Part shown: piece by piece, positions 1,029 to 52,877 of the stretch
Position numbering within the stretch: the first letter of the stretch is position 1
Layout: every line of letters starts with the position of its first letter
Source of the DNA: Nitrosopumilus sp.
GTDB lineage: Archaea; Thermoproteota; Nitrososphaeria; Nitrososphaerales; Nitrosopumilaceae
Assembly (NCBI GenBank): GCA_965205215.1
Contig: OZ242041.1
Coordinates: 640,001 to 704,000 of the forward strand
Direction of reading: 5' to 3'
DNA: 64,000 bases
The notes under the pieces: model-generated
What the model was told of the DNA's origin: nothing
The model's input: only the letters and a program-made list of their open reading frames with translations
The model's database searches: none
Made by a program: the position numbers and the translations under genes

Positions 1029-4000
1029 ATGCATAACGTATGGCGCGCGTCGTGCGAGCCGTGCCATGCCGCCATTGTAATGACCGCAATAGTCGCGGCA
1101 TCGTGCGCCGCGGCAGACACCGCGGTCTGGGCGAACCACTCGCCGACCAGCTGCATACTGCACGTGCGCGGCGAGTCCCACCCCGTCACGTACCTAGGCG
1201 AGCCGCGGCAAAACTCCGACGGCACCTACTACCCGGGGGACGCGTTCTACTACATATTCAGGTGGGAGGATAGATCCGACGAACCAGACGACTGTACAGT
1301 CCATGCGCCGCTCCTTGAGAGCGGCAGACTGCTGCTTGGCCACCATACCGTACGGGTGGACGGCGAGGGCCGCATGTTTCGCAGCGCGCCATTGACGCAC
1401 ACCGACCTCGATCCGGCAGTAGGGTTCCTGAGCGAGACCGACTTTTACGCCGGCAAAATGCAGACGGAGTGCCAGGTGTCGTTTGCAAAGCCCGGCGAGT
1501 CCTGGCGCACGCGGTGGGAGCAGTGGGCCGTATACGACAAGGTGTTCCTCACAAAGGACGGCACAGACAGGCTGACGGAATTTGAAAAGACGCTCAAGTC
1601 CAAGGCGTACCGCGGGGATCCCGCCTGGGAGTGGTGGGAGCAGAAGGGCAAGATGAGGAGCGGCCACCCTGAACTGCCAGAGTGCCAGTTCGAACTGCGG
1701 CCCGGCGGTGCGGGGGAGCAGAACCCGGGACTGCCCGCACACATGAGGTACTACGGCGGGGGCATATTCTACGCCACGTCGTATTCCTGGGGGATCATGG
1801 CAGGCGGGGGCAGCGCGTCTCACGCGCACCTGGCCGCGACTCCCGCAGACCCGGATAGCGCGGCGTGGTTTGAAGAGCGCGTGCAGGAGCTGTGCGGTAG
1901 GCCCGCCCTGCCCGCCCGCTCGGGCTGCGTGTACGGGACGGCCGAGATACGGCCCGACAGGGGGGTGTGCGTGTCCGATGCGGTCGGCTCGTACGCGCGA
2001 TTGCTGGACGCGTGGCATACGGGGCTACCGCCGTACGACATAACCGGAGCAGGCGGCAAGCCTATTGAGCCGCCCCCGGGGCCGCCGCCCGGGTACCCCG
2101 CACCGTCGTGGGGGCACCTGCTGGCCAACCGGACGTACCCGTTTGACGTGCGGACGCCGCCGCCCGGCATTGCGCCCGAGATGTATGAAGTGGCGCCGGC
2201 AGGCGACGTGTGCGCCACCGCGTCGTCAGACGGTTCAAAGCTCGAGCTGACCATATCGGGCACATATCTGACGCCGCACCACCGCGCAAACGACATACCG
2301 GTAAAGGGGGTCAAGGAGGTGGCAAGGGACGCGGGGCCGCCGCTGCAGGACGGCGAGCTGCGCATCATACTGACAAAGCCGCCGCTGCACCACATGGAGG
2401 GGTATGACGCCAAGAATATCGACGGCACCTACTATCACGACGATCCGATATACGTGCGCCACGAGCCGTCGTGGAAGTGGAAGGACGAGCGCATCGCGCA
2501 CATCAGCTTTTCGACGCACCGCCTGCCGCCCTCCACGCTCCCGGCAATAGACGAATTTGACTGCCCCCTTCTTCCTCCTCCTCCGTCAGATGACGGGAAC
2601 AGCAGCAACACTGTCGCGCCCGCTCCTCACACGACGGCGCCTCCGTGTGAGTACGCGGTCGGGGTGGACTCGCCGCCGTGGCTGGCCGAAAAGATACGGT
2701 TCGGCAACGGCGACGGGCTGACGGTCCGGACCGCCGACGCGTCGCACGGTTTCGGCACGCACACATTCTCATACAACATGACCGCCCACAACTTAGGCAG
2801 GCAGGTCGCAGACGCGACGAATTCTACGGAGGCCGAGGTCGTGCCGTACGAGCCGTCCTACGAGACGATGTACTCGTATCCCGTGCTCGCAGACGCCCGC
2901 GAGTACGCCTTTGACGACCGGCACGGGATCGCCATGAGGTACGGCGGGAGCTGGCAGGACGGCGTACTGCATACAATGCGCCGCTCGTTCATCAACGGAT
3001 GGGACGGGGCTGGCGGGGGGCACGACCCGTACACGTACAACCGCTTTGGGCAGGAACACGTGCTAGACACCGGCCGCAACGCCTCGCCCGACCACACCGC
3101 TCTGGAGCACGCACGGGACACGCAGACTGCCATGTTCGTGCAAAGCGGGCACGGCGCAGTCCTGTTTGAGTGGCCCGTGTCCGGATGGGTGTTCTCCGCG
3201 TACAACCAGACGACAGCGGGGGCGCCGGCCGCCGCCACGTATGCGAAGGCGGCAGTCTACGAGAACGTCACGGCGCACCTGCAGGTCTACAGCCGTGACT
3301 TTGCGGGCAAGGACACCCTGCTGTACGAGACTGCTATGCGCTATCCGGAGATGCCGTTTGCAAAGCACGTGGCTATACAGTCAGTCGACCACGCCGGAGC
3401 CATACAGGCCGCGGATGACATCACGTTGCGTGTGACGCCATATGCGGAACTGGGAGCCGAATATCTGACGGACTACATACGAGACAAGGTAACGTGGGAT
3501 ACGGGCGACACGGTCATATCCCAGATCGTCGTAAACGACACTCATCCCATGGTACAGGAGTGGCACGCGTCCGACGGCATGATCAGTGCAACGGTGCTGC
3601 GCACATCAGTCCACTTTGGTGACATTGCCATCCAGAACAGCACAGGCCTGCCGTTCAGCGGCAAGCTGGCGGACCTCCACGAGCTGGCAGAGCATCCGGA
3701 GACTCTACGCCTCACCGCCCCGTACGACCTAGGGCTAAGCGTGCTGGCCCCAACGTCCCTGTACGTCGCGATAAACGGCTTCGGAGAGTATGCCATACAC
3801 CACAAGTACTACTCGTTTGGAGGGAGTGAGACAGTCAGCATCAACGTCCAAAAGGACAACCCGGCAGACATCTCAAGGGAGCCGGGCCGCATCATCATAA
3901 GGCAGCCTGAAAACTTCGGCATGATCAAGCATGTCGAGATAAATGGCACGCGTCTGCTGCAACCGTGTCCCACTGGCTGCATCGTCACGTCCCAGCCAGA

Positions 4001-4187
4001 TGTCGCCTTGGATATAATACTGTACAACGAGTGGGGCGGGGAGGCCCATGGCACCGTCAACGCATCAAGTATGTTTGATACGTTGCGTCCGGACGAACCG
4101 CGGTGGGTGATTATCGGGATTGTCACGTCACTGCTCGTGATTTCATATATGACATATAGAAAGATCACGACTATAGAAAGTCAATGA
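1029..4187 (+). CDS. Large secreted, C-terminally anchored protein (ICE surface/pilus-associated)
   Basis: Hydrophobic signal (AAIVMTAIVAASCAAA), internal NxDGTYY repeat x2, C-terminal TM plus RK. Start uncertain (ORF open from 795). Confidence 0.7.
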   Translation: MHNVWRASCEPCHAAIVMTAIVAASCAAADTAVWANHSPTSCILHVRGESHPVTYLGEPRQNSDGTYYPGDAFYYIFRWEDRSDEPDDCTVHAPLLESGRLLLGHHTVRVDGEGRMFRSAPLTHTDLDPAVGFLSETDFYAGKMQTECQVSFAKPGESWRTRWEQWAVYDKVFLTKDGTDRLTEFEKTLKSKAYRGDPAWEWWEQKGKMRSGHPELPECQFELRPGGAGEQNPGLPAHMRYYGGGIFYATSYSWGIMAGGGSASHAHLAATPADPDSAAWFEERVQELCGRPALPARSGCVYGTAEIRPDRGVCVSDAVGSYARLLDAWHTGLPPYDITGAGGKPIEPPPGPPPGYPAPSWGHLLANRTYPFDVRTPPPGIAPEMYEVAPAGDVCATASSDGSKLELTISGTYLTPHHRANDIPVKGVKEVARDAGPPLQDGELRIILTKPPLHHMEGYDAKNIDGTYYHDDPIYVRHEPSWKWKDERIAHISFSTHRLPPSTLPAIDEFDCPLLPPPPSDDGNSSNTVAPAPHTTAPPCEYAVGVDSPPWLAEKIRFGNGDGLTVRTADASHGFGTHTFSYNMTAHNLGRQVADATNSTEAEVVPYEPSYETMYSYPVLADAREYAFDDRHGIAMRYGGSWQDGVLHTMRRSFINGWDGAGGGHDPYTYNRFGQEHVLDTGRNASPDHTALEHARDTQTAMFVQSGHGAVLFEWPVSGWVFSAYNQTTAGAPAAATYAKAAVYENVTAHLQVYSRDFAGKDTLLYETAMRYPEMPFAKHVAIQSVDHAGAIQAADDITLRVTPYAELGAEYLTDYIRDKVTWDTGDTVISQIVVNDTHPMVQEWHASDGMISATVLRTSVHFGDIAIQNSTGLPFSGKLADLHELAEHPETLRLTAPYDLGLSVLAPTSLYVAINGFGEYAIHHKYYSFGGSETVSINVQKDNPADISREPGRIIIRQPENFGMIKHVEINGTRLLQPCPTGCIVTSQPDVALDIILYNEWGGEAHGTVNASSMFDTLRPDEPRWVIIGIVTSLLVISYMTYRKITTIESQ

Positions 4188-4193
4188 CATGGA

Positions 4194-4432
4194 GTAGCTG
4201 TCCAACCTCGTCCAATAACCTGTGCCTAGACTTGCTTTAGGTGTGTGTAAGAAGATGACGCCCGTGCCCAGTATTTGAGAGGCGTTGAACAGTTACGCTT
4301 CGGCCGCGGAACCCAAACCAGGCCCATTTCTCTTCAGTCATGCCGGGCCTTGGACACAACTTGGCCCGTCCTACAAGTCTGTGTCCACGTCAGGTTCCGC
4401 AAGCGAGCAGGGGTGTGAGGTTGGACAGTTAC
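4194..4432. mobile_element. MITE, IS66-like ends
   Basis: AGTAGCTGTCCAACCTC (4193-4209) vs GAGGTTGGACAGTTACT (4417-4433), 16/17 inverted match; further internal inverted repeats GCGGAACC/GGTTCCGC and TGGACACA/TGTGTCCA. Confidence 0.7.
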
Positions 4433-4459
4433 TTACCATTGACCGCGTTTGGAAGCACA

Positions 4460-5869
4460 CTAGGTGAAAATCTTTTGTCTCGTGTCCGAGTCGACATCTG
4501 CATAAGGCTTCACAGATGGATTTCTTATGTATCTGCCTTTTGTATAGTCGGAATGATACAACAAGGCGCCGGATATTTCGGGATGCGGCCCTAACTCTTC
4601 TTCCACTATCGGCTTAATCTGATTAAAGTCATAATTGCTATCCTCAAACGAACTGCTCCACAACACTGCCTTAATTACAAAAATTATTGGTGAGCCCTGC
4701 ACGTACTGCTTTTTCTCAATCTTGGATTTCAGCTTGCGCCTGATCTGGTTGAAAAACGACTCTTGCTGCAGATCTCCCGTTGTTATGGATGAAGGTTCAG
4801 GCAAGGAAGATAGTTCTCGGTTCGGGGCTGACATGGCATCTTCATGGATTACAACGCACGAGGGCGCGTCTACTGCATTCTTGCAGCTTATTGTGGTGAA
4901 TGGCGCGGAGGCAACGTCCTTGATGGTGATTTTTTTGGCCCATTCTCTGACAGCGTCTTCTTCTTCGAGCATTTTCTTTACGCGTGGGGGATGATAAGGA
5001 TATTCGTACAGCGTGTTGGAAAGATATGATTCTGTGCCCGGAGATCTATAAAGCATCAGCGGAATTGAAACGTTGAATTTTGAGAGCGCGTACAGGGAAA
5101 ATTTATCGATCCACCGAGTGATTTTTTCTAAAGACTCTGCCTCGTCGATCTTACCATCATGACACACTAGCTTTGTAGTGTCCAGATACAAGTTCAATCT
5201 AAAACTATCTTCACTTTTGACGCGTTCAAAAATATGTTTACAAAGTTTGTCGCATATGGATTGTATTTTGTTACTGGTAACTGACTCTGTAACAGAGCTT
5301 AGTTCGAGAAATATATCCCTGTCGTCCATTTTTACCCGAATGTCTGGATTTGTGTTGTTGGGCAAGTTGTATTCATAATCGACGTTTGAAATTCCTATCT
5401 TTTGACCTATTCTGTACGCGGTTGTAATCTCGAAAAAAGCGGATTCGCTGTCATAATAATCGCGTGACGATAAGCGCGTTTTGAATGATTGACGTGCATC
5501 TCTTTTCCGTTGTGAAATATCGAATGCTTCTAGGCTTTTTTCTAACAGAACTAACGGCTGAGGATCAAAGTACAAGTGGGTGTATTCTATATAGTTGGGC
5601 TCTGCTTCGCCATTTGTCTCAACACCTAGTAGCGAATTTAGATCAACGGGCGTTATCTCATCCTTACATTTTAAAAAAATTATGTTTTTGGCTTCTCTGT
5701 AGCTTAAGCCATCATAACCTGCAAAATTATCAACCAGTTTGTTTATCAAAGGAAAACGAGATATGCGCTCTTTCGCTCGCGTGACTTGCCATTCGTGGAA
5801 CTTTTGATAGCTGGGATCGCATTTTGGATATCTTCCCAGAGCATTCATGTAGGTGCACAGAATCGGCAC
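4460..5869 (-). CDS. Low-GC hypothetical protein, possible PD-(D/E)xK nuclease fold
   Basis: 469-aa ORF with AT-rich codons; motif ...FFEITTAYRI...NPDIRVKMDDRDIFLELSS resembles a restriction-endonuclease-like core. Confidence 0.65.
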   Translation of the reverse strand: MPILCTYMNALGRYPKCDPSYQKFHEWQVTRAKERISRFPLINKLVDNFAGYDGLSYREAKNIIFLKCKDEITPVDLNSLLGVETNGEAEPNYIEYTHLYFDPQPLVLLEKSLEAFDISQRKRDARQSFKTRLSSRDYYDSESAFFEITTAYRIGQKIGISNVDYEYNLPNNTNPDIRVKMDDRDIFLELSSVTESVTSNKIQSICDKLCKHIFERVKSEDSFRLNLYLDTTKLVCHDGKIDEAESLEKITRWIDKFSLYALSKFNVSIPLMLYRSPGTESYLSNTLYEYPYHPPRVKKMLEEEDAVREWAKKITIKDVASAPFTTISCKNAVDAPSCVVIHEDAMSAPNRELSSLPEPSSITTGDLQQESFFNQIRRKLKSKIEKKQYVQGSPIIFVIKAVLWSSSFEDSNYDFNQIKPIVEEELGPHPEISGALLYHSDYTKGRYIRNPSVKPYADVDSDTRQKIFT

Positions 5870-5896
5870 GGTATATGTTTAACTTGTATGTGTTCC

Positions 5897-5977
5897 GTGA
5901 CTATTCAACCTACGCGCCTGCACCAAGAGGTGGGCGGATGGATTCGAGTCTAAATTTTGAAGGGGTCGAACAGTTAC
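5897..5977. mobile_element. Short MITE relic, IS66-like ends
   Basis: GTGACTATTCAACC ... GGTCGAACAGTTAC imperfect inverted repeat, 81 bp. Confidence 0.55.
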
Positions 5978-6037
5978 TGACATGGAACGAGCAAACTTTA
6001 TTAAATTAATCCTTTCTAATAAACAAGTACAAAAATC

Positions 6038-6847
6038 ATGAATCTTTGGAAGGAATTTCTCAATAGAAGCAAACGTGATTTGGAGGTGTCAGAAATCTGT
6101 TTTAAAAAGAAAGATTATGAGTTGGCGTCATATCTCTTGCAACAGGCGTTGGAGAAATCTATCAAATCATATATGTTGAAAAATAATGCCATTGGGAATC
6201 CAAAGCAGTTACATCATTTGACACTTGGGGGAATTTTTCATATTATAATAGAGAAACTTAGGGAAGGTAGGCGGAAGCACCAGAACAATATTGGATTAAT
6301 GGGACTATTTGATTGTATGATAAAACTTTGCAAAAAGTATCAAGAAGTTTTCAAGCCACAAGAAATAAACGATACAAAAAAGAAACTTCCGTTTTGGAAA
6401 GTCTCCCTGCAGCTTTCATTAAGTAATGAAGACAAAAAATATCTACAAGAAACATTTATTGTTAACTTCCAACAGGACATAGAAAAATGCAACGATATTT
6501 TTAAAAAAATATCCGAAGATTTTACAAATCTGCCGAAAGGATTCACAAACCGTATCGAAGAATCAAAAATTATGGAAGCTTTGAATGAGTCAAGAGAAGA
6601 TTATGGTGACAAAATTTCACAGATTCCATCATTGAAAATTTTAGAGCCACTTCTTTTGTTCATGGATACTAAACTTGTGAATATAATAATCAAAACATTT
6701 GCCCATGAGGACATAGGCAGGTATCCAACTGAGGTGGATGGGAAGATTTCTACGGAATTATATGCAAAAAATCCAACCTTGATCAAAAATATGATAGAAG
6801 ATGTGAGAACCGTATGTTCAGATTTAGAAAAGAGAATGGAAGAATGA
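6038..6847 (+). CDS. HEPN domain protein
   Basis: SKRDLEVSEICF...YELASYLLQQALEKSIKS...HHL and C-terminal RYP are typical HEPN motifs; very low GC; TATA-like CTTTATTAA upstream. Confidence 0.85.
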   Translation: MNLWKEFLNRSKRDLEVSEICFKKKDYELASYLLQQALEKSIKSYMLKNNAIGNPKQLHHLTLGGIFHIIIEKLREGRRKHQNNIGLMGLFDCMIKLCKKYQEVFKPQEINDTKKKLPFWKVSLQLSLSNEDKKYLQETFIVNFQQDIEKCNDIFKKISEDFTNLPKGFTNRIEESKIMEALNESREDYGDKISQIPSLKILEPLLLFMDTKLVNIIIKTFAHEDIGRYPTEVDGKISTELYAKNPTLIKNMIEDVRTVCSDLEKRMEE

Positions 6848-40470: not shown

Positions 40471-40638
40471 TCTTGGACATCCCGGACTGCTGTCTTGTGA
40501 CGCGTATTAAACGTTGACAAGAACGGGTTGTATGGACTCACCTATGTTAACCCTCGTGCGTAGTTGGCGTGTCTGTGTCGTTGCACTTCCATTCCGTGCG
40601 TGATTGGGTGGCCGGCGGTTTATAGCTTACGCTGGGGG

Positions 40639-42023
40639 TAGTTAGTTGCGCAACCCTGCCTAGAATTTCGAGATACGCCACTTTTGTGAGCTGTTTTGTG
40701 CCCCCAAGTAGAATCTTCTTCACACCGCGTCTTATGTGTGCATGACGTGATGCCCCATCAGCGATCAAGAAGATGGGGCTAACACATCAGCAACAGCATG
40801 TGCTCTCGGAGCGCGAATTTAAGCGGATTGCCGCACCGGCCGGTCCCCGTGCCCGCCTGCGGGGGAGGGCGCGCGGTTGACCTGCGGGGACGGCGGGGCG
40901 ATGAAGCGGAAGCGGAGGTCGCGGCCCGGGATGCCGCACGCGCAGAACGACGCCAGGTACGTGGCGACGGGGCGCGCGCTGGCGCTCGTCACAAGCCCGG
41001 ATGCGGGGGCGGAGCTGAGGCGTATGAACAGGGGGAAGAACGGCCGCCCGTACAAGTATCCGGAATCGCTCATAATGACGCTGGCGGGGTTCAGGAGCTA
41101 CTGCAGGCTCTCGTTTCGCGTATGCGAGGGATTTGCAGGGGGGCAGCTGGGCGGGGGGAGCGTGCCGCACTTTACCCAGATATGGAGGAGGATGAACGCG
41201 CTCGACGTCTCGGTCGGGGCCCGCGCCGTGTCGGTGCGCGGCAGGAACGGCGTGCTGAACCTGTCCATAGACGGCACCGGAATGAGCCCCAGCGGGCGCA
41301 GCGAGTACATCCGGTTCAGGCACAGGGTGGAGCACGGGTTCATCAGGTTCGTCATGGTGGTGGATACGGACACTAGGGAGATCCTCTCGTTCAGCATAAC
41401 GGACGAGACCACCGGCGAGGCGCCGCAGTTCAGGGATCTCACGCTCGAGGCCCTGGAGAACGCCGGGGTCGGCGCGGGCGCGGCAGGCCGGGTGGGGCGG
41501 GGGCCGGGGCCGGGGGCCACACCACGCGGCGGAGGGCCCGAGATAGTGATGAGGGCCGACGGCGGGTTCGACTCGCGCCCCATATTCGCATTCTGCGACA
41601 GGCTCGGGATCATACCGTACATCAGGGTGGGCATAAGCTCGGCCACGCGCTCGCGCGGCGTAAACAGGGCCAGGACCCGCGCCGTCCTCGACCAGCTCGG
41701 GGGAGGCATGCGCGATCCCCGGGAATTTGCAGAACTGACCAGGGACGAGAAGGAGGCAAACCGCAAAAAGTGGAAGAAGAGGGTCGGTTACGGCAAAAGA
41801 TGGCTGGTTGAGATTGTGATCTCGTCGTTCAAGAGGCTGTTCGGGGACTCCGTGCGTGCGGTACGCTGGAAGTACATCGCGCGGGAGATGACGCTCAAGG
41901 TGAACCTCTACAACATGATGCTGAGGGTCCAGAGGGAGGCAATGGCAGTGACATAGGGACAGTGCACCTGAACGCAATCATGGGATATGGGCATGCGGGA
42001 TGAGGGAGTTGCGCAACTAACTA
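40639..42023 (+). mobile_element. IS5-family element, copy A
   Basis: 16-bp perfect TIR TAGTTAGTTGCGCAAC; 8-bp TSD GCTGGGGG; 1385 bp. Confidence 0.92.
40901..41956 (+). CDS. IS5-family DDE transposase
   Basis: GRPYKYP, SIDGTG, ADGGFD and WKKRVGYGKRWLVEIVISSFKRLFG motifs. Confidence 0.92.
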   Translation: MKRKRRSRPGMPHAQNDARYVATGRALALVTSPDAGAELRRMNRGKNGRPYKYPESLIMTLAGFRSYCRLSFRVCEGFAGGQLGGGSVPHFTQIWRRMNALDVSVGARAVSVRGRNGVLNLSIDGTGMSPSGRSEYIRFRHRVEHGFIRFVMVVDTDTREILSFSITDETTGEAPQFRDLTLEALENAGVGAGAAGRVGRGPGPGATPRGGGPEIVMRADGGFDSRPIFAFCDRLGIIPYIRVGISSATRSRGVNRARTRAVLDQLGGGMRDPREFAELTRDEKEANRKKWKKRVGYGKRWLVEIVISSFKRLFGDSVRAVRWKYIAREMTLKVNLYNMMLRVQREAMAVT

Positions 42024-42063
42024 GCTGGGGGTGGCAGCTGCCAAGACCGGGCATCCCGTAGGA

Positions 42064-43179
42064 TTACTGCCGCTTCCGGCCTGCCTTCTTGATCTTGTTC
42101 AGCTTGCGCTGGTACATTGCCTCGTTGCGTGACTTGTACGGTGTCTGGGTGCTCAGCATATGCCACATTATTGTGACCATCTTGTGCGCCACTGCCACTA
42201 TGCCGAGCGCATGCTTGTCCGCGTGCCGCCGCTTGACGGCCTCGTATACGAGTGCCATCTTCGGGTCGTGCATCACGGCCACCTGCGCGGCCTCGCACAT
42301 GGCCCAGTTTACCAAGCGGTTGGTGTTCTGCTTTTTGATGCGGTTCATCCGCGTCGAGTCGCCGGACTCGCGTACCATCGGGCAGAATCCCGCCATGGAG
42401 ACCAGCTTTTTCGGGCCCTTGAACCGCGTTATGCCGTCTATCTCCACTGCCATCAGCAGCGCGACGAACGGCCCGACGCCGGGCATGCTCATCAGCAGCC
42501 TGGCATCTTTGTTCTGCTCTGTCTCTGCAGTGAGGTGCCTGTCAGTATCCGACAGTGACTCTGTAAGGTACTGCATCTGCCTGACGTGCTTTTGCAGCAC
42601 GAACGTCTCGTTTGCGGTTCCGAGCTCGGTCGCCTCCAGCTGCCTGATGCCCTTGAGCGAGTACAGGTTTTTCGCCCCGATGCTTACGTTGTAGGCGTCA
42701 AGGATGCCGCGGATCCTGTTTATCACCTTGGTCCGGTCCTGGGTCAGCCTGACGTGGTGCCGTATCAGGGTCCTGATGCCGCGGACGTGCTTGGTCGGCA
42801 CGTGGCACGCGTCTATCATGCCGGACCGGAGGAGCACTGCAAGCTTGTGCGCATCCTCCCTGTCCGTCTTTTTTGCGCTCTTGGTGATCATCTTCAGCTT
42901 GTACGGGCTGGCCAGGAAGATGCGGACTCCAGCGTCCTCAAACGCCTCGTACGTGGTTCTCCACATGTTGGCGGTGGATTCGCAGACTGCACTGCATTCA
43001 CCCTTTTCCGCGCCGTACTTGCGCGCCATCTCCCGTGCGGCCTCCCTTGCGTCCCGTATCATGTTGGGGTACTGTCCCCTCTCGGCGACCTCCCCCATGG
43101 GATCCAGGACGCAGTAGTCACACTTTTTCTTACTGATGTCGATTCCTATGCTTGTGGTTGCTGTCATGTGTGTGTCCAT
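42064..43179 (-). CDS. IS110-family DEDD recombinase
   Basis: GIDISK, CEST and KTDREDA (DEDD); MPGVG HhH; ESG catalytic Ser. Confidence 0.95.
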   Translation of the reverse strand: MDTHMTATTSIGIDISKKKCDYCVLDPMGEVAERGQYPNMIRDAREAAREMARKYGAEKGECSAVCESTANMWRTTYEAFEDAGVRIFLASPYKLKMITKSAKKTDREDAHKLAVLLRSGMIDACHVPTKHVRGIRTLIRHHVRLTQDRTKVINRIRGILDAYNVSIGAKNLYSLKGIRQLEATELGTANETFVLQKHVRQMQYLTESLSDTDRHLTAETEQNKDARLLMSMPGVGPFVALLMAVEIDGITRFKGPKKLVSMAGFCPMVRESGDSTRMNRIKKQNTNRLVNWAMCEAAQVAVMHDPKMALVYEAVKRRHADKHALGIVAVAHKMVTIMWHMLSTQTPYKSRNEAMYQRKLNKIKKAGRKRQ

Positions 43180-43193
43180 TTTTTGTTCTCACC

Positions 43194-43383
43194 TCCTTTC
43201 GGATGTCTGGTTTTGACGGAACGGAAGCTGCAGTCACCTATCGGGGCGCGCAGCCCAGTTATACAGCAGCTCGGATTGCCCCATTCAGGTCGAAGAGTGC
43301 GCGGTCTGATTGTATTCCGTGTCCCATGAGTACAGAGGGGTCGCTCCATCACGCCCGTCACGACTAGAAGGGTTATCATCCAA
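43194..43383 (-). ncRNA. Candidate bridge RNA, copy A
   Basis: Same sequence as 45036-45225. Confidence 0.6.
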
Positions 43384-43428
43384 TCAGGTCGCCACATCTC
43401 ACGATTCGAGCGTATGCGAAGAACCGTC

Positions 43429-44963
43429 TCAGCATGCGGCGGCAGAAGGCGCCGCCGCTGCGGCCCGCACCGGCCGCTCGGCGCGTTCCGGGCAGTCGGG
43501 CGGCTTGAATATGCGCCAGTCGGGATCCTCGATCATGCGCTCCACCGCCATGCGCGGGAACATGCCCATCTTCTGGCACGTGCGCGCGACGGACACCAGC
43601 ACGGAGAACACGTGGCGTCCCTCGGGTTCTGACAGCTGGTGGCGCACGTTGCGGTGCAGCACTACGGTATCGCGTATCTCCAGCTCGGCGGCGTTGTTGT
43701 GGGGCGGCATGCCCGGATACCTCAGGAACGTGAACAGGTGCGGGGCGGCGCCCTCCAGCGTCTCGCGGAACCCGTGCCCTTTTTTGTAGCCCGACGCTAT
43801 GCGCAGCGCGGCCTTTTCGAGGTTCAGGCACTCGGTACTGTCAGCCGACTTGCGGTCCTTGATCCTCCCGTACAGGGAGAGCAGCCTGCGGTAGCACGAC
43901 AGGTCGTCCCCGCCGTTTCTTACGGCGTATTTCTCGGCCTCGCGCAGTATGTGGGCCCAGCAGCGCTGCCGGACCGGCAGCATGCCGTATACCGCATACC
44001 CGTCGGTGACGGCCGGCATGCCGAGCAGGCCGCCAAAGTGCAGCTCCAGCACGGCCGCGGCCCTGCTCGGGGCCGCCACGATATACGTGGCGTCCCCCGC
44101 CGTCGCCAGCCACACGTACCCGCGTTTGCCGTTCATCCTGACGACCGACTCGTCGAACTGCACGAACGCGGCGCGCGAGATACGCTCCAGGATGCCGCTG
44201 TACGCGGATCTGAGCAGGCCTCCCAGCGCCCTGCGCGCGTTCCAGACGGCGTTTGCCGACACCGAAAAGCCGTAGAGCGCCCGGAAATAGTACGATATGG
44301 TCGCGTCAGTCGACCTCTTGGCGTAGTATTCCAGTATGAACCCCAGGGCCCCCGGGCCGAACGACGTGCCGGGCAGCAGCCCGGGGGCCGGGGCGGTGCT
44401 GACCGCGCCGCACCTCCTGCAGAACCCGCGCTCCAGCACGTACGCGACCGTCTCGACGCGCCTGCTGCTTTCGTCCGGAAAGTCGTTTACGATTCTTGTG
44501 ACGGGGGCCGCGTACGCGAGGTGGCCGCGCCCGCAGTTCCGGCACCGGTACAGGCGCAGTCTCATCCTCCTAGAGGGCCTGTTGCCGTGGGACGCGCCCG
44601 CGTGCCCCTCCGGGGGCCCCTGCGCCTGCCCGCCGAACGCCCCTCCGGTTCAGGTCCGTCTTTCGCGCCGCCGTCCCCTCCGCGCCCCTCCTCTTCTGCA
44701 AGCCTCTTCCGGAACGCGTCGCGCTCCGCATTGTACATGGAACCCGTGGAGGACGGCGCGTTCGGATTCTCGTATTTGGCCAGCCTCCTGTCCTGTTCTT
44801 CAATGGTCTCCATAAGCAGGTCTATCTGCTCCTCAAGGCCTGCCCTTATCCTGTCACGCTCGGCCTCCACACGGGCGACCGCATCCTGCAGCCTCTTGAT
44901 CTCCGCCATCATCTTGGCCATCTCCCGGCGCAGCAGCGCCGTCTCGGAATCGCCCATGGACAA
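43429..44963 (-). pseudogene. IS66 transposase split by a frameshift at a C5 run (44612-44616)
   Basis: Coiled coil + NPNAPSS in ORF1; CxxC, VQFDES, VTDGY, QRCWAH and NNAAELEIR in ORF2; one extra C would restore GPPEGHAG... Confidence 0.85.
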
Positions 44964-45035
44964 TTCGCAGAATATATGATCTATAAGCTTGTCGGCCTAC
45001 CAAAACGACCAACAGAGTCACAGGCACGGACCTGA

Positions 45036-45225
45036 TTGGATGATAACCCTTCTAGTCGTGACGGGCGTGATGGAGCGACCCCTCTGTACTCATGGGACAC
45101 GGAATACAATCAGACCGCGCACTCTTCGACCTGAATGGGGCAATCCGAGCTGCTGTATAACTGGGCTGCGCGCCCCGATAGGTGACTGCAGCTTCCGTTC
45201 CGTCAAAACCAGACATCCGAAAGGA
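45036..45225 (+). ncRNA. Candidate bridge RNA, copy B
   Basis: Contains TGTACTCA, ATACAATCA, CGACCTGA and ATAGGTGA, matching the target and donor half-sites; exact RNA ends unknown. Confidence 0.65.
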
Positions 45226-45239
45226 GGTGAGAACAAAAA

Positions 45240-46355
45240 ATGGACACACACATGACAGCAACCACAAGCATAGGAATCGACATCAGTAAGAAAAAGTGTG
45301 ACTACTGCGTCCTGGATCCCATGGGGGAGGTCGCCGAGAGGGGACAGTACCCCAACATGATACGGGACGCAAGGGAGGCCGCACGGGAGATGGCGCGCAA
45401 GTACGGCGCGGAAAAGGGTGAATGCAGTGCAGTCTGCGAATCCACCGCCAACATGTGGAGAACCACGTACGAGGCGTTTGAGGACGCTGGAGTCCGCATC
45501 TTCCTGGCCAGCCCGTACAAGCTGAAGATGATCACCAAGAGCGCAAAAAAGACGGACAGGGAGGATGCGCACAAGCTTGCAGTGCTCCTCCGGTCCGGCA
45601 TGATAGACGCGTGCCACGTGCCGACCAAGCACGTCCGCGGCATCAGGACCCTGATACGGCACCACGTCAGGCTGACCCAGGACCGGACCAAGGTGATAAA
45701 CAGGATCCGCGGCATCCTTGACGCCTACAACGTAAGCATCGGGGCGAAAAACCTGTACTCGCTCAAGGGCATCAGGCAGCTGGAGGCGACCGAGCTCGGA
45801 ACCGCAAACGAGACGTTCGTGCTGCAAAAGCACGTCAGGCAGATGCAGTACCTTACAGAGTCACTGTCGGATACTGACAGGCACCTCACTGCAGAGACAG
45901 AGCAGAACAAAGATGCCAGGCTGCTGATGAGCATGCCCGGCGTCGGGCCGTTCGTCGCGCTGCTGATGGCAGTGGAGATAGACGGCATAACGCGGTTCAA
46001 GGGCCCGAAAAAGCTGGTCTCCATGGCGGGATTCTGCCCGATGGTACGCGAGTCCGGCGACTCGACGCGGATGAACCGCATCAAAAAGCAGAACACCAAC
46101 CGCTTGGTAAACTGGGCCATGTGCGAGGCCGCGCAGGTGGCCGTGATGCACGACCCGAAGATGGCACTCGTATACGAGGCCGTCAAGCGGCGGCACGCGG
46201 ACAAGCATGCGCTCGGCATAGTGGCAGTGGCGCACAAGATGGTCACAATAATGTGGCATATGCTGAGCACCCAGACACCGTACAAGTCACGCAACGAGGC
46301 AATGTACCAGCGCAAGCTGAACAAGATCAAGAAGGCAGGCCGGAAGCGGCAGTAA
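45240..46355 (+). CDS. IS110-family DEDD recombinase
   Basis: Protein identical to 42064-43179; SD GGAGGTGA upstream. Confidence 0.95.
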   Translation: MDTHMTATTSIGIDISKKKCDYCVLDPMGEVAERGQYPNMIRDAREAAREMARKYGAEKGECSAVCESTANMWRTTYEAFEDAGVRIFLASPYKLKMITKSAKKTDREDAHKLAVLLRSGMIDACHVPTKHVRGIRTLIRHHVRLTQDRTKVINRIRGILDAYNVSIGAKNLYSLKGIRQLEATELGTANETFVLQKHVRQMQYLTESLSDTDRHLTAETEQNKDARLLMSMPGVGPFVALLMAVEIDGITRFKGPKKLVSMAGFCPMVRESGDSTRMNRIKKQNTNRLVNWAMCEAAQVAVMHDPKMALVYEAVKRRHADKHALGIVAVAHKMVTIMWHMLSTQTPYKSRNEAMYQRKLNKIKKAGRKRQ

Positions 46356-46395
46356 TCCTACGGGATGCCCGGTCTTGGCAGCTGCCACCCCCAGC

Positions 46396-47780
46396 TAGTT
46401 AGTTGCGCAACCCTGCCTAGAATTTCGAGATACGCCACTTTTGTGAGCTGTTTTGTGCCCCCAAGTAGAATCTTCTTCACACCGCGTCTTATGTGTGCAT
46501 GACGTGATGCCCCATCAGCGATCAAGAAGATGGGGCTAACACATCAGCAACAGCATGTGCTCTCGGAGCGCGAATTTAAGCGGATTGCCGCACCGGCCGG
46601 TCCCCGTGCCCGCCTGCGGGGGAGGGCGCGCGGTTGACCTGCGGGGACGGCGGGGCGATGAAGCGGAAGCGGAGGTCGCGGCCCGGGATGCCGCACGCGC
46701 AGAACGACGCCAGGTACGTGGCGACGGGGCGCGCGCTGGCGCTCGTCACAAGCCCGGATGCGGGGGCGGAGCTGAGGCGTATGAACAGGGGGAAGAACGG
46801 CCGCCCGTACAAGTATCCGGAATCGCTCATAATGACGCTGGCGGGGTTCAGGAGCTACTGCAGGCTCTCGTTTCGCGTATGCGAGGGATTTGCAGGGGGG
46901 CAGCTGGGCGGGGGGAGCGTGCCGCACTTTACCCAGATATGGAGGAGGATGAACGCGCTCGACGTCTCGGTCGGGGCCCGCGCCGTGTCGGTGCGCGGCA
47001 GGAACGGCGTGCTGAACCTGTCCATAGACGGCACCGGAATGAGCCCCAGCGGGCGCAGCGAGTACATCCGGTTCAGGCACAGGGTGGAGCACGGGTTCAT
47101 CAGGTTCGTCATGGTGGTGGATACGGACACTAGGGAGATCCTCTCGTTCAGCATAACGGACGAGACCACCGGCGAGGCGCCGCAGTTCAGGGATCTCACG
47201 CTCGAGGCCCTGGAGAACGCCGGGGTCGGCGCGGGCGCGGCAGGCCGGGTGGGGCGGGGGCCGGGGCCGGGGGCCACACCACGCGGCGGAGGGCCCGAGA
47301 TAGTGATGAGGGCCGACGGCGGGTTCGACTCGCGCCCCATATTCGCATTCTGCGACAGGCTCGGGATCATACCGTACATCAGGGTGGGCATAAGCTCGGC
47401 CACGCGCTCGCGCGGCGTAAACAGGGCCAGGACCCGCGCCGTCCTCGACCAGCTCGGGGGAGGCATGCGCGATCCCCGGGAATTTGCAGAACTGACCAGG
47501 GACGAGAAGGAGGCAAACCGCAAAAAGTGGAAGAAGAGGGTCGGTTACGGCAAAAGATGGCTGGTTGAGATTGTGATCTCGTCGTTCAAGAGGCTGTTCG
47601 GGGACTCCGTGCGTGCGGTACGCTGGAAGTACATCGCGCGGGAGATGACGCTCAAGGTGAACCTCTACAACATGATGCTGAGGGTCCAGAGGGAGGCAAT
47701 GGCAGTGACATAGGGACAGTGCACCTGAACGCAATCATGGGATATGGGCATGCGGGATGAGGGAGTTGCGCAACTAACTA
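46396..47780 (+). mobile_element. IS5-family element, copy B
   Basis: Same TIRs as copy A; 8-bp TSD CCCCCAGC (46388-46395, 47781-47788). Confidence 0.92.
46658..47713 (+). CDS. IS5-family DDE transposase
   Basis: Identical to 40901-41956. Confidence 0.92.
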   Translation: MKRKRRSRPGMPHAQNDARYVATGRALALVTSPDAGAELRRMNRGKNGRPYKYPESLIMTLAGFRSYCRLSFRVCEGFAGGQLGGGSVPHFTQIWRRMNALDVSVGARAVSVRGRNGVLNLSIDGTGMSPSGRSEYIRFRHRVEHGFIRFVMVVDTDTREILSFSITDETTGEAPQFRDLTLEALENAGVGAGAAGRVGRGPGPGATPRGGGPEIVMRADGGFDSRPIFAFCDRLGIIPYIRVGISSATRSRGVNRARTRAVLDQLGGGMRDPREFAELTRDEKEANRKKWKKRVGYGKRWLVEIVISSFKRLFGDSVRAVRWKYIAREMTLKVNLYNMMLRVQREAMAVT

Positions 47781-47893
47781 CCCCCAGCGTAAGCTATAAA
47801 CCGCCGGCCACCCAATCACGCACGGAATGGAAGTGCAACGACACAGACACGCCAACTACGCACGAGGGTTAACATAGGTGAGTACATACAACG

Positions 47894-47978
47894 GGTTCCG
47901 TTGCTAATTCGTGACTCCTTTCAAAAAACAATCAGTTTCCATCCTTACCTGCGGAGGTCACAAATTCGCAACGGAACC
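47894..47978. mobile_element. 85-bp MITE
   Basis: GGTTCCGTTGCTAATTCGTGAC vs reverse complement of right end GGTTCCGTTGCGAATTTGTGAC (20/22); related to the ends at 12704, 13843 and 25297. Confidence 0.75.
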
Positions 47979-48025: not shown

Positions 48026-50323
48026 CTAGTGACAATAGCACCTGGCCGCGGCTACCTCTAGTACCTCTTTGGTCGTGAGTTCCCCGTCAACATAGTCTTG
48101 CATTGCGACATGCCACTCGCCTTCCTGTATCGCGCCGTCGCCGTTGCTGTCATACCGCTCTACCGGGGTACGCGGGTCGGGCTCGGGCTCGTCGCTTTCG
48201 GCTACCAGGCAGAACTGTTCGGTACATTCGATGACCCAGTCATCGCCGTACGTGGCTCTGTTCTTGTCATCTTTGGGTTTTTCCTGCTGCGCCTCCGCGG
48301 GCTCTGGCGCGACTACCGTGACCGTCCTGTTCTGCTGGACGGCCTGGGTGCCCGAGCTGTCGGCCACCCTGTAGTGCAGCGAGTACTCAGCGGCCACTGA
48401 CGTGTCCACGGTACCCGTGACGGTCACGTTGGCGGTTATGTTGCGGCCCGCGTGGTCGGTGGCCGCGTAGCCGGGCTCCTCCCACGCCGAGCCGAGCTGT
48501 ATGGTCATGTCGGGCGAGCCGGCCAGTGTGATCACCGGGGGCTGCGGCGGGTTCGGCGTGACTGTCTTTTGCTGCTGCTCCTCCTCCGCGGGCTCTGGCG
48601 CGACTACCGTGACCGTCCTGTTCTGCTGGACGGCCTGGGTGCCCGAGCTGTCGGCCACCCTGTAGTGCAGCGAGTACTCAGCGGCCACTGACGTGTCCAC
48701 GGTACCCGTGACGGTCACGTTGGCGGTTATGTTGCGGCCCGCGTGGTCGGTGGCCGCGTAGCCGGGCTCCTCCCACGCCGAGCCGAGCTGTATGGTCATG
48801 TCGGGCGAGCCGGCCAGTGTGATCACCGGGGGCTGCGGCGGGTTCGGCGTGACTGTCTTTTGCTGCTGCTCCTCCTCCGCGGGCTCTGGCGCGACTACCG
48901 TGACCGTCCTGTTCTGCTGGACGGCCTGGGTGCCCGAGCTGTCGGCCACCCTGTAGTGCAGCGAGTACTCAGCGGCCACTGACGTGTCCACGGTACCCGT
49001 GACGGTCACGTTGGCGGTTATGTTGCGGCCCGCGTGGTCGGTGGCCGCGTAGCCGGGCTCCTCCCACGCCGAGCCGAGCTGTATGGTCATGTCGGGCGAG
49101 CCGGCCAGTGTGATCACCGGGGGCTGCGGCGGGTTCGGCGTGACTGTCTTTTGCTGCTGCTCCTCCTCCGCGGGCTCTGGCGCGACTACCGTGACCGTCC
49201 TGTTCTGCTGGACGGCCTGGGTGCCCGAGCTGTCGGCCACCCTGTAGTGCAGCGAGTACTCAGCGGCCACTGACGTGTCCACGGTACCCGTGACGGTCAC
49301 GTTGGCGGTTATGTTGCGGCCCGCGTGGTCGGTGGCCGCGTAGCCGGGCTCCTCCCACGCCGAGCCGAGCTGTATGGTCATGTCGGGCGAGCCGGCCAGT
49401 GTGATCACCGGGGGCTGCGGCGGGTTCGGCGTGACTGTCTTTTGCTGCTGCTCCTCCTCCGCGGGCTCTGGCGCGACTACCGTGACCGTCCTGTTCTGCT
49501 GGACGGCCTGGGTGCCCGAGCTGTCGGCCACCCTGTAGTGCAGCGAGTACTCAGCGGCCACTGACGTGTCCACGGTACCCGTGACGGTCACGTTGGCGGT
49601 TATGTTGCGGCCCGCGTGGTCGGTGGCCGCGTAGCCGGGCTCCTCCCACGCCGAGCCGAGCTGTATGGTCATGTCGGGCGAGCCGGCCAGTGTGATCACC
49701 GGGGGCTGCGGCGGGTTCGGCGTGACTGTCTTTTGCTGCTGCTGCTGCTGCTGCTGCGCCTCCGCGGGCTCTGGCGCGACCACCTTGGGCTGCGGCGACT
49801 CCGCGGGAGGCGCGACGATGCACGCTTGGACGGTATCGGTCTGTGACCAGTCCATATCGGTGGCCTTCCAGTGCGCAGCCCTGCCGGGGCTGTCGGAGAA
49901 GGGAAACCTGTCGGCGCCAAAGACAAGCTCCAGGCCGTGTCGGTTCTGGATGGGCGTCTCGGTTGCAAATATCAGGTAATCCAGATCCATGTCGAGGTAC
50001 AGGTACTCTACGCCATAGTTGGCGCCCTCATAGTTAATGTGGCGGGGGGTGAGCCACTGGATGCAGGCGGCATCGTACCAGTACCAGCAGCCATGCGAGT
50101 TGCCCGCCTCGTACGTCACAAGGGTGGCGTTCCAGACGACGTCAAAGGCGCGGCCGTCGTCGGTGACGGGCACGCTGCAGGCGAAATTGCCGCTTTGAGC
50201 CGTTGGCGGGCCGTCCGAGTCACCGTCCGATTGCGCAAAGGCGTCCTCGACGGCCGTGACATTCGACAGGCCGTACGCCGCGACTGCCAAAAGGACGATC
50301 ATCGCACAGAGCCCGGGCTTCAT
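48026..50323 (-). CDS. Secreted surface protein with five DUF5011-type Ig-like repeats and EF-hand-like CYCH tail
   Basis: Signal peptide ending AFA; PVITLAGSPDMTIQLGSAWEEPGYAATD...VDTS..Y x5; C-terminus DSNGDGAI...AAARCYCH. Confidence 0.88.
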   Translation of the reverse strand: MKPGLCAMIVLLAVAAYGLSNVTAVEDAFAQSDGDSDGPPTAQSGNFACSVPVTDDGRAFDVVWNATLVTYEAGNSHGCWYWYDAACIQWLTPRHINYEGANYGVEYLYLDMDLDYLIFATETPIQNRHGLELVFGADRFPFSDSPGRAAHWKATDMDWSQTDTVQACIVAPPAESPQPKVVAPEPAEAQQQQQQQQKTVTPNPPQPPVITLAGSPDMTIQLGSAWEEPGYAATDHAGRNITANVTVTGTVDTSVAAEYSLHYRVADSSGTQAVQQNRTVTVVAPEPAEEEQQQKTVTPNPPQPPVITLAGSPDMTIQLGSAWEEPGYAATDHAGRNITANVTVTGTVDTSVAAEYSLHYRVADSSGTQAVQQNRTVTVVAPEPAEEEQQQKTVTPNPPQPPVITLAGSPDMTIQLGSAWEEPGYAATDHAGRNITANVTVTGTVDTSVAAEYSLHYRVADSSGTQAVQQNRTVTVVAPEPAEEEQQQKTVTPNPPQPPVITLAGSPDMTIQLGSAWEEPGYAATDHAGRNITANVTVTGTVDTSVAAEYSLHYRVADSSGTQAVQQNRTVTVVAPEPAEEEQQQKTVTPNPPQPPVITLAGSPDMTIQLGSAWEEPGYAATDHAGRNITANVTVTGTVDTSVAAEYSLHYRVADSSGTQAVQQNRTVTVVAPEPAEAQQEKPKDDKNRATYGDDWVIECTEQFCLVAESDEPEPDPRTPVERYDSNGDGAIQEGEWHVAMQDYVDGELTTKEVLEVAAARCYCH
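48296..49750 (-). repeat. Five tandem 291-bp coding repeats
   Basis: Identical shadow ORFs recur every 291 bp (48452, 48743, 49034, 49325, 49616). Confidence 0.95.
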
Positions 50324-50662
50324 CGGTGTTCGACGGGGGGGGGGGGGTATAATAACCTTAACCAATAATTCGAGAAAATATGTACAAACATTAACTATTG
50401 GACAGATCAAATTGGCATATGTTTGGCAGCCTTTCTGCCGGGTACCGGGTGGGTTCTGGCCCCGAATGGGGATTTTTTGGATTACAAGGCGGCCGGATCT
50501 GCGGGTGTTGGCCGGTCCGGGGCCCTGCCGGTGCCCGGGCGCCCGACACCCGCGAGGCGCCCGCCGCGGGCGGCCTGCCGTGCGCCCCGGTTTTCACGGT
50601 ACATGGCAACCCCCCCACCGTCCTTCGGGAACGGTGCCGGATTCGGCATGATCCTGTCCGCT

Positions 50663-51586: not shown

Positions 51587-52426
51587 CTTGTGTAACCCCT
51601 CAGACATGATTGGCGCGACTGTCGCCGCACTTCCATTCCGTGCGCGGTTGGGTGGCCGGCGGTTTGTGGATTACACGGGGGGGGGGGGTGGCAGCTGCCG
51701 GGATCGGGCATCCCGCAGGATTGCCGCCGCCCCCGGCCCGCCCCCTTGATCTTGTTCAGCTTGCGCCGGTACATTGCCCCGTTGCGTGGCCCGTACGGTG
51801 TCCCGGTGCCGCGGACGCGCCCGGTCGGCACGCGGCACGCGTCTATCATGCCGGACCGGAGGGGCACCGCAAGCCTGCGCGCGTCCTCCCCGTCCGTCTT
51901 TTTTGCGCTCCCTGTGATCATCTTCAGCCTGTACGGGCTGGCCGGGGGATGCGCGCCCCCGCGTCCCCAAACGCCTCGTGCGTGGCACGCCACATGCCGG
52001 CGGCGGACACACAGACTGCCCCGCATCCTCCATTTTTCGCGCCGTACCTGCGCGCCATCCCCCGCGCCGCCCGTCCCGCGCCCCGCATCGCGTTGTGGTA
52101 CCGCCCACTCTCGACGGCCACCCCCCCCGGGATCCGGGGCGCAACAGTCGCGCTTTTTCTTGCTGATGTCGATTCCTGTGCTTGCGGTTGCTGCCATGCG
52201 CGCGTGTCCATTTTTTGTCCTCGCCTCCCCTAGAATGCCTGGTTTTAACTGAACGGAAGCTGCGGCCACCTATCGGGGGCGCGCAGCCCTGCCATGCAGC
52301 AGCCCGGATTGCCCCATTCGGGTCCGGGAGTGCGCGGCCTGGCCGTATTCCGTGCCCCGTGAGTCCGGAGGGGTCGCTCCACCACGCCCGTCACGACGGG
52401 GGGGGGGGGAGGTTGTCATCCAATCA
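51587..52426 (-). pseudogene. Decayed IS110 copy C (frameshifts, ~630-bp internal deletion, no IS5)
   Basis: Aligns to 40545-40638, 42032-42150 and 42780-43386. Confidence 0.88.
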
Positions 52427-52514
52427 GGTCCACGCCCGTCAAATCTCAAAATACCGACAAGCGGGCACGAGTTTTCGAGGGGCCTGAGCGCATACCGTGC
52501 GCGGTATGGTCTCA

Positions 52515-52731
52515 CGTCGGCACGTCTCGCGAATCGAGCGCATGCTAAGAACCGCCCCGGCATGTCGCGGCGGCAGCGGCGGCAGCAGAAGGCGCCGCCG
52601 CTGCAGCCCGCACCGGCCGCTCGGCGCCCCCCGGGCAGTCGTCGGGCGGCTTGAACATGTGCCAGTTCGGATCCTCGATCATGCGCTCCGCCGCCATGCG
52701 CGGGAGCATGCCCATCTTCTGGCACGTGCGC
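52515..52731 (-). pseudogene. Decayed 3' fragment of the IS66 transposase
   Basis: RTCQKMGMLPRMAAERMIEDPNWHMFKPPD aligns to 43390-43585. Confidence 0.85.
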
Positions 52732-52877
52732 AATCTAATTTATAAACATGTGAAATGGTTATTTGCTATGTTGCAGCGGAATGCAGTTTTTAGCCCTGCC
52801 TCTCCATGCGCGGCCGGCCATCCCGGCCCGCGTGCCATGCGCAGTGAGGCCTCTCGGGGGGGGGGGGGTGACTCCAT

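Follow-up and report, generated by a model that had tools for sequence, protein, structure and literature searches.

The 64-kb window analysed here (64,000 nucleotides of contig OZ242041.1, Nitrosopumilus sp.) holds, between positions 40522 and 47978, a three-level nest of insertion sequences (ISs) that was very probably built by site-directed insertion into a Nitrosopumilaceae-type chromosome. The junctions show that an IS66-family element of the kind with a single open reading frame (ORF) inserted 4 bp inside a miniature inverted-repeat transposable element (MITE) with an 8-bp duplication, and that both inverted ends of the IS66 received an IS110-family element between nucleotides 11 and 12, each time in the orientation set by that end. 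The site would have been chosen by the IS110's own guide RNA (a bridge or seek RNA) from its 207-nt left end, one loop of which is predicted to pair with both strands of the IS66 end, one on each side of the core, with a second loop putatively bearing the sequence of the element's own joined ends. Each IS110 copy in turn carries an IS5-family element. The genome is a single contig of 2,098,239 bp, here called C1, and coordinates without that prefix are those of the window; RF01959 matched its rRNA at 1459 bits, identifying an archaeal host.

A preliminary description of this DNA, made from the letters alone, had proposed such a hierarchy with exact junctions at every level. Repeat finding and direct inspection of six junction regions confirmed that the nest exists in the sequence: all four levels (MITE, IS66, IS110 and IS5) are present and each junction is exact at the following positions. 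The left copy of the IS66 target duplication, AACGGGTT (8 bp, no strand assigned), lies at 40522-40529 and is followed by the outer tip of one IS66 inverted end, 11 nt reading GTATGGACTCA (40530-40540, minus strand), severed from its body by IS110; both were read directly. The left IS110 copy, whole and including its IS5, spans 40541-43386 on the minus strand, as found by repeat finding and direct reading. It comprises the final 98 nt of the right end (RE; 40541-40638, minus), which contains the subterminal repeat GGGTTAACAT with a 3-nt extension and terminates ...CATAGG on the minus strand; IS5 copy 1, of 1385 bp with a perfect 16-bp terminal inverted repeat (TIR; 40639-42023, plus, transposase frame 40877-41956, plus), between 8-bp duplications GCTGGGGG at 40631-40638 and 42024-42031; and the remainder of the IS110 (42024-43386, minus), that is, the rest of the RE, the gene for a 371-aa transposase (42064-43179, minus) and the 207-nt left end (LE; 43180-43386, minus) with the putative guide RNA (structured part ~43214-43353). 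The IS66 body, with GGTC starting at both ends, occupies 43387-45032 (minus). The right IS110 copy, whole and including its IS5, runs on the plus strand from 45033 to 47878: its first part (45033-46395, plus) holds the left end with the guide RNA (45033-45239), the transposase gene (45240-46355) and the start of the RE, and is followed by IS5 copy 2 (46396-47780, plus), which shares 100% identity with copy 1 and lies between 8-bp duplications CCCCCAGC, the complement of GCTGGGGG, at 46388-46395 and 47781-47788, and by the final 98 nt of the RE (47781-47878, plus). Beyond it stand the outer tip of the second IS66 inverted end, 11 nt that read TGAGTACATAC (GTATGTACTCA inverted; 47879-47889, plus), the right copy of the target duplication AACGGGTT (47890-47897, no strand assigned) and the 85-bp MITE with its 22-nt inverted ends (47894-47978, no strand assigned). 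The final 4 nt of the right AACGGGTT copy are nucleotides 1-4 of the MITE, which places the IS66 4 bp inside it; a second MITE copy (93%) lies at C1:1107678-1107763. The details of the preliminary description were borne out as well: the IS66 duplication overlaps the left end of the MITE (by 4 nt), both IS66 TIRs are split after nt 11 by inverted, identical IS110 copies whose arms (42008-43390 and 45029-46411, 1383 nt) are 100% complementary, and both IS110 3' ends carry identical IS5 copies at the same 8 bp, 98 nt from the end of the RE. In the whole 2.098-Mb genome this IS110 is present in full just twice and this IS5 likewise just twice, all of them inside the nest, which excludes a chance layout.

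The transposase of the invading element matched DEDD_Tnp_IS110 (PF01548) at 92 bits, Transposase_20 (PF02371) at 74.9 bits and NCBIfam NF033542 at 227.8 bits (cut-off 140), and its residues D14, E67, D106, D109 and S272 aligned by phmmer with the catalytic DEDD and serine residues of IS621, the roles of which are given in passages of PMC11208158. Both copies sit between ...ACTCA and GGTC..., flank and element end sharing only TCA/TGA, and no target duplication beyond this common TG(A) core was generated, in keeping with the IS110 family. Read in the sense of the transposase, the left flank is ...GACC, the element TGATTGG...CATAGG and the right flank TGAGT(A/C)CATAC. Its left end is TGATTGG followed by ATGATAACCC and its right end GGGTTAACAT followed by AGG, so written that 10-nt subterminal repeats agreeing at 9 of 10 nt carry a 7-nt extension on the left and a 3-nt extension on the right; those of relatives in genome G092 agree at 11 of 12.

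Three 8-mers in the 207-nt left end coincide exactly with the element's junctions. Slot 1, TGTACTCA (IS positions 53-60; 45085-45092, plus), on the 5' side of internal loop 1, corresponds in reverse complement to the right target flank TGAGTACA (47879-47886) from the junction outward, and has one mismatch to the corresponding flank of the left IS110 copy. Slot 2, CGACCTGA (CGACC+TGA, IS positions 95-102; 45127-45134, plus), on the 3' side of the same loop, equals the element's TGA preceded by the final 5 nt of the left flank, at 8/8 positions for the left copy and 7/8 for the right. Slot 3, ATAGGTGA (ATAGG+TGA, IS positions 146-153; 45178-45185, plus), on the 3' side of internal loop 2, equals the element's own joined ends, i.e. 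the last 5 nt of the RE and the TGA with which the LE starts. Three of four expected guide segments thus appear to be present, within a predicted structured RNA of the kind found in the IS110 family. An extra hairpin with the loop CAAUCA is a candidate fourth guide only.

Relatives of the element allowed the slots to be compared across 16 insertions (this window, a relic at 51.6 kb and 14 loci from relatives), and their left-end alignment showed a conserved scaffold in which the slot stretches are variable. Slot 2 equalled its own left flank at 4-5 of 5 nt in 16/16 insertions, compared with a mean of 1.24 and a maximum of 3 against foreign flanks (210 cross-family pairs); slot 1 matched its own right flank at a mean of 3.5 of 6 nt, against 1.44 in cross-family pairs. 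Even sister copies covaried, slot 2 reading TGCAT in L043 and TGTAT in L050, each identical to its own flank, and the imperfect cases were close (GGTCG for a CGTCG flank in L044 and TTTTG for an ATTTG flank in L042, both 4/5). Five helices drawn on an 11-sequence alignment (27 pairs, 297 cells) were paired in 97.6% of cells, with changes on both sides in 6 of the 27 pairs; sliding the partners reduced pairing to 31-51% of cells, and shuffles reached the observed values in 0/500 trials on four of five measures and in 38/500 for further pair types. The fold puts slots 1 and 2 on opposite sides of one internal loop, with an outer helix enclosing both loops. At the level of sequence, these comparisons demonstrate slot complementarity, its covariation in relatives and the predicted RNA fold. 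By analogy with the published IS621, ISEc11 and ISEc21 systems, the RNA would be made and would guide the recombinase.

The invaded IS66 differs from its sisters in this genome. Its 378-aa ORF (43429-44565) matched Pfam DDE_Tnp_IS66 (PF03050) at 80.6 bits and NCBIfam NF033517 at 151 bits, under the cut-off of 180 owing to a broken frame. Relative to five intact copies, the loss of 1 nt near 44619 parts a 406-aa frame, which contains the 378-aa ORF, from a 144-aa N-terminal frame. Five further copies, of the uninterrupted kind that the preliminary description had proposed to look for, were found elsewhere in the genome, each 90% identical to the nest copy and with a 523-aa open transposase frame. 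The split frame therefore marks the nest IS66 as a diverged pseudogene copy outside the active set. The ends of the five intact copies (GTATAGACTCAGGTC... and GTATGGACTCACGTCC...) start GTATAG or GTATGG and are continuous where the nest copy is split (GTATAGACTCA+GGTC... and GTATGGACTCA+CGTCC...), and sister copies are flanked by the 8-bp duplications GCCTGCTG, ACTGATTA, GATCTGTT and ATGCACGA. Target duplications of 8 bp and inverted ends starting GTA are typical of the IS66 family. With 1.67 kb and one transposase frame, the element is of the single-ORF kind, which we take to be the ISBst12 group; the accessory tnpA and tnpB of canonical IS66 were not found in it. At C1:870561-873869 two intact copies lie head to tail with only the 8 bp ACTGATTA between them, and ACTGATTA recurs on either side of the pair, which is therefore a tandem dimer with one common target duplication. 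For the nest copy, the final 11 bp of each end are displaced by 2.85 kb, so for as long as the IS110 copies remain, an IS66 transposase would be unable to excise the element. It is a reasonable inference that IS110 immobilises this IS66, the transposase gene of which is already broken. The further suggestion in the preliminary description, that precise excision would undo the arrangement, found no support in the analysis; for an IS1111-type element, a restored target was not detected after circle formation in the passages of Siddiquee et al. 2024 (PMC11187229).

Slots 1 and 2 together define a 13-mer as the guide-predicted target. It has no exact match in the genome; the two occupied sites, reconstituted, have one mismatch each, 19 genomic sites have two, including the left ends of the five intact IS66 copies, and the right ends of those copies have three. 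Several more IS66-like ends (...GGACCTGAGTGCATAC and similar) lie within 400 bp at C1:169879-170262, unoccupied and with 2-3 mismatches to the predicted target. A third, degenerate and internally deleted IS110 copy, ~82% identical, occupies 51590-52426 (minus strand). Its left end adjoins GGTCC..., an IS66-like inner end, and its slot 1 reads CGGACTCA. This relic and the adjacent IS66-like relics (51590-52870) contain runs of 11-13 G at ~51677, 52399 and 52858, one of which replaces, in the IS110 relic, the sequence at which IS5 sits in the intact IS110 copies; a loose end behind 45048 in sequencing run X17 carries a matching C run.

Relatives of the IS110 transposase are found in other members of the family. 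A metagenome scan returned 15 loci with similar proteins, the closest with 69% identity but on a contig of 1346 nt that breaks off within the element and so added no flanks, and among 201 genomes of the same order no relative closer than 52% aa was found outside this genome; the named relatives, from a scan of genome contigs, are metagenome-assembled genomes of Nitrosopumilaceae, with L040 the closest (88% aa). The guides of L040 spell GGACTCA+GGTCG, the left IS66 end of this window. Its contig bears a ~10-kb island of mobile elements that is lacking here at the syntenic position C1:1332426-1332571; orthology of L040 with the 51.6-kb relic was considered and rejected, the L040 contig being syntenic with C1:1329682-1336373. 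Beside the IS110 in that island, at 5363-6583 (minus) of L040, lies a frame for an AbiEii-type nucleotidyltransferase toxin (PF08843, E 2e-15).

Genome G092 holds four copies of an IS110 relative at 52% aa, whose reconstituted target occurs there (within three mismatches) 10 times uninterrupted and twice interrupted. This target coincides exactly with the terminus of an element whose copies number at least 7 and agree at 94% or more over 1.5 kb; the element encodes a 473-aa IS66-family transposase (PF03050, E 1e-38, and zf-IS66), and one of the IS110 copies (L044) lies in the end of a 99.6%-identical copy of it. The IS110 sits there after ~nt 16 and in the opposite orientation, so the guides have been re-written and not inherited. 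Elsewhere, 63 nt separate L041 from the end of an IS66-family frame of 561 aa; a clean empty site for L041 was not found in this genome; L048 lies inside an IS66-family relic, the tip of which, GTAACTGGTT, recurs inverted at the relic's other end; and L050 has IS66-like fragments ~430 nt away. L046 and L068, which represent an IS110 relative at 54% aa (~3800-6500), are inserted 8 nt into a TIR belonging to an IS5-family element, the other end of which was also found. Homology links that TIR, TAGTCTGTTGCACAAC, to its counterpart in the nest IS5; with IS5 lying within IS110 here, the IS110 and IS5 families invade each other in different genomes. L071 is 240 nt from an IS630-type gene, and no transposon end was seen at the insertion in the inspected flanks of L040, L043 and L053. 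Comparison with these relatives suggests that aiming at transposon ends may be a trait of the clade. A wider reading is tentative and, to our minds, rather less than even in its prospects: that a Nitrosopumilaceae IS110 clade with IS1111-like ends and an upstream guide has specialised on the TIRs of ISs (IS66 in at least four lineages, IS5 in one), that its guides are re-written as these ends change, and that an RNA-guided arms race is under way between transposons, the end differences of the five intact IS66 copies being its escape variants and the occupied copy a casualty.

How IS5 came to sit in both IS110 copies admits two histories. With a DDE_Tnp_1-type transposase (Pfam DDE_Tnp_1, PF01609, and DDE_Tnp_1_5, PF13737; NCBIfam NF033579 154.4 bits, cut-off 140), a perfect 16-bp TIR and an 8-bp duplication, it belongs to the IS5 family. 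Its two copies are direct repeats on the chromosome and the IS110 hosts are inverted, so that its orientation relative to IS110 is opposite in the two. On the reading that we favour, if only tentatively, it inserted once into IS110, travelled as cargo to the second IS66 end and later inverted in place across its 16-bp TIRs; cargo 46 bp from the end was tolerated by ISEc11 according to passages of Siddiquee et al. 2024 (PMC11187229). Alternatively, IS5 inserted twice independently at the same 8-bp hotspot of IS110, once per orientation, a history that would suit the perfect 8-bp duplication around each copy, the GGCAGCTGCC palindrome adjoining the site and the lack of any further copy of this IS5 in the genome. 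We consider it unlikely, if a serious contender: relatives at 48% aa are flanked by 8-bp duplications of unrelated sequence (AGGAAAAC and GACGTTTA), and the same IS5 is present at other sites in run X15, the sample of a relative, where a contig of 1422 nt spans it (4 differing letters and 6 gaps over the 1385 nt), flanks vary among three contigs, and the IS110 body is covered by no contig. The element is thus mobile independently in related strains without a site preference being seen, and a chance hit on the same 8 bp twice in 2.1 Mb would be very unlikely. Two other schemes were rejected, namely a flip of IS5 by homologous recombination between the mirror arms, since such an inversion preserves mirror symmetry, and a composite transposon IS5-X-IS5, since the outer flanks are inverted and not direct. 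As a side reading, inversion of IS5 in place would break up an otherwise perfect 2.85-kb palindrome.

Aiming of the IS110 at the IS66 end, as the preliminary description had it, is upheld by guide slots that match the split site, by the relic adjoining an IS66-like end and by relatives in IS66-family ends. That an RNA does the aiming must be weighed against the transposase recognising the IS66 end by protein-DNA contacts, the 8-mers of the left end being non-guiding leftovers or copies of junctions. The matches are indeed short (8 nt), slot 1 is poor in 4 of the 16 insertions (3, 2, 1 and 0 of the 6 nt beyond the core in L040, L043, L048 and L053, respectively), and Rfam, scanned with the right IS110 copy at E<=1, gave no match. 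Further observations count against guidance towards IS66 ends. No convincing fourth guide (the right donor guide) was found in this element, and the side where it would lie, 5' of loop 2, reads TGTAT..., which suits the start of relatives (ACACA/ATACA) and not the TTGGA here. The order of the slots, with the complement of the top strand first and the match to the bottom strand second, is opposite to that of IS621 in passages of PMC11208160. A site outside IS66, C1:1835369, also has a single mismatch to the 13-mer and is empty. The IS110 census in this genome is small, at two copies and one relic, and the five intact IS66 copies carry no IS110. The further proposal of a multi-copy safe target found no support: one IS66 is occupied, a frameshifted, 90%-identical variant, and the five intact copies are free. 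The expectation that every IS110 copy would occupy such an end had little to be measured against: the two full copies lie in IS66 ends and the relic beside an IS66-like end; in L040, the left flank fits its own guide at 7/8 nt and the right flank does not fit. Nevertheless, we judge recognition by protein contacts alone to be highly improbable, given that the slots occupy two internal loops of a fold with compensatory changes, that they change with the flank in 16/16 insertions while scaffold and protein stay similar, that this pattern is the signature of bridge and seek RNAs in passages of PMC11208160 and PMC11187229, and that NCBIfam names the protein family RNA-guided.

RNA-guided insertion would have taken place at each IS66 end separately. 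The competing scenario of one insertion, with the second copy arising by recombination or gene conversion between the IS66 ends or by palindromic duplication, draws on the perfect mirror symmetry of the 100% identical IS110 copies and on how common gene conversion between inverted repeats is. It seems very doubtful here: the IS66 ends share ~15 nt (GTATG.ACTCAGGTC), too short for ordinary conversion of 2.85 kb; the inner sequences are not alike, and the outer tips have kept their difference at position 6 (G or T); and neither conversion nor fold-back gives the differing IS5 orientation. Moreover, the guide fits both ends with one mismatch each, so two insertions are to be expected.

Read-level support was assessed with Logan contigs placed on the locus. 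Run X13, which contains 0.79 of sampled words, had depths of 92.7 for IS5, 89.8 for the IS110 body, 47-53 for unique flanks and 233 for a contig of the other IS66 type, which fit copy numbers of 2, 2, 1 and 5, respectively. Its contigs show all four IS5/IS110 junction types: a 44-nt contig links the right end of IS5 to the IS110 body at the depth of a single copy (42.7), and loose ends account for both types found in the right-hand copy. Since X13 is possibly the sample from which the assembly came, it is not independent support. In X17, from another study, a 1888-nt contig runs from the IS5 right end through the IS110 end and the IS66 tip to the MITE flank, as in the right-hand copy. The IS110 body was not covered in X15 or X17 and little in X1, such contig gaps not being evidence of absence, and the small-share runs X1-X12 were left aside as regards habitat; likewise, no circle-junction contig was among the joints reported from run contigs, which cannot show absence. 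That repeats misled the assembly into the nest, or at least into the difference in IS5 orientation, is scarcely credible, for although the identical repeats are long (1.4 kb direct and 1.4 kb inverted) and the support comes from contigs and not raw long reads, the X13 depths and junction contigs and the X17 arrangement from another study all agree with the assembled layout, and a single 2.1-Mb contig with several multi-copy ISs suggests that long reads were used.

Beyond the MITE, an ORF at 48026-50410 (minus) encodes a 794-aa surface protein with five Bact_surface_Ig-like domains, within which near-perfect (99%) 291-bp tandem repeats extend over 48284-49000 and beyond.

The mechanism proposed here is already known, and the locus adds a case and a pattern and not a new principle. 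Archaeal IS110 recombinases as such are on record (662 in one survey). The preliminary description knew of no archaeal IS110 that targets IS66 TIRs; we found no IS110 aimed at IS66 ends, nor such a case in archaea, in full-text searches of the literature, the supplementary target lists of PMC11208160 and PMC11187229 aside, whereas the principle is in print for bacteria. The lineage of the locus lies outside the experimental work in the published passages of PMC11208160, PMC11208158 and PMC11187229, and with guide and target side by side in a natural archaeal genome it offers a ready-made test pair for an RNA-guided recombinase. With it, the habit of aiming at transposon ends, known from bacteria, would reach archaea and would take in IS66 and IS5 as targets. 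If this is a clade trait, such IS110 elements may limit the spread of ISs in the small genomes of symbiotic and free-living ammonia oxidisers.

In bacteria, IS4321 and IS5075 reportedly aim at the terminal inverted repeats in transposons of the Tn21 family. The element described here is like them in having a DEDD transposase and subterminal inverted repeats and in lying at a fixed position and orientation inside the TIR of another transposon. Their hosts are bacterial and their target is of the Tn3 family, whereas here the host is archaeal and the target an IS66; their guide RNA lies downstream of the transposase gene and the putative one here upstream; and, unlike in their case, both ends of one target element are occupied. 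Muller, Lauf & Hermann (2001, Mol Genet Genomics 265:1004) are said to have described that IS1383 targets the inverted repeats of IS1384 in Pseudomonas putida H, likewise an IS110-family IS aimed at the inverted repeats of another IS, in a bacterial host and with a different target IS.

In the bridge RNA, every guide takes in the core and pairs with just one of the strands, as set out in passages of Durrant et al. 2024 (PMC11208160). With IS621, as presented in passages of PMC11208160 and PMC11208158, our element has in common a predicted guide RNA in the left end, upstream of the recombinase gene, two internal loops (target and donor), a core in each guide and conserved DEDD and serine residues. 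The protein is only weakly similar to that of IS621 (45 bits), the core is TG(A) here and CT in the IS621 passages, and an outer helix encloses both loops and the subterminal repeats are long, unlike in IS621. The seekRNA elements of the IS1111 family (ISEc11, ISKpn4 and ISPa11, in passages of PMC11187229) likewise have subterminal inverted repeats, of about 11-13 bp, that are extended by 7 nt on the left and 3 nt on the right, and the same order of segments, the complement of the top strand (53-60 here) preceding the match to the bottom strand (95-102), and tolerate cargo near the end. Their guide RNA lies in a longer non-coding region downstream of the transposase gene; here the upstream region is the longer (207 nt, holding the guides) and the downstream one measures 138 nt. 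According to the same passages, a few IS1111 exceptions with an upstream non-coding region exist, and transposases of that family have 330-350 aa, compared with 371 aa here. As judged from its sequence features, then, the element mixes the two subgroups, with its guide upstream as in IS110 and its ends and segment order as in IS1111, and a guide RNA with features of both should be useful for studying the evolution of bridge and seek RNAs.

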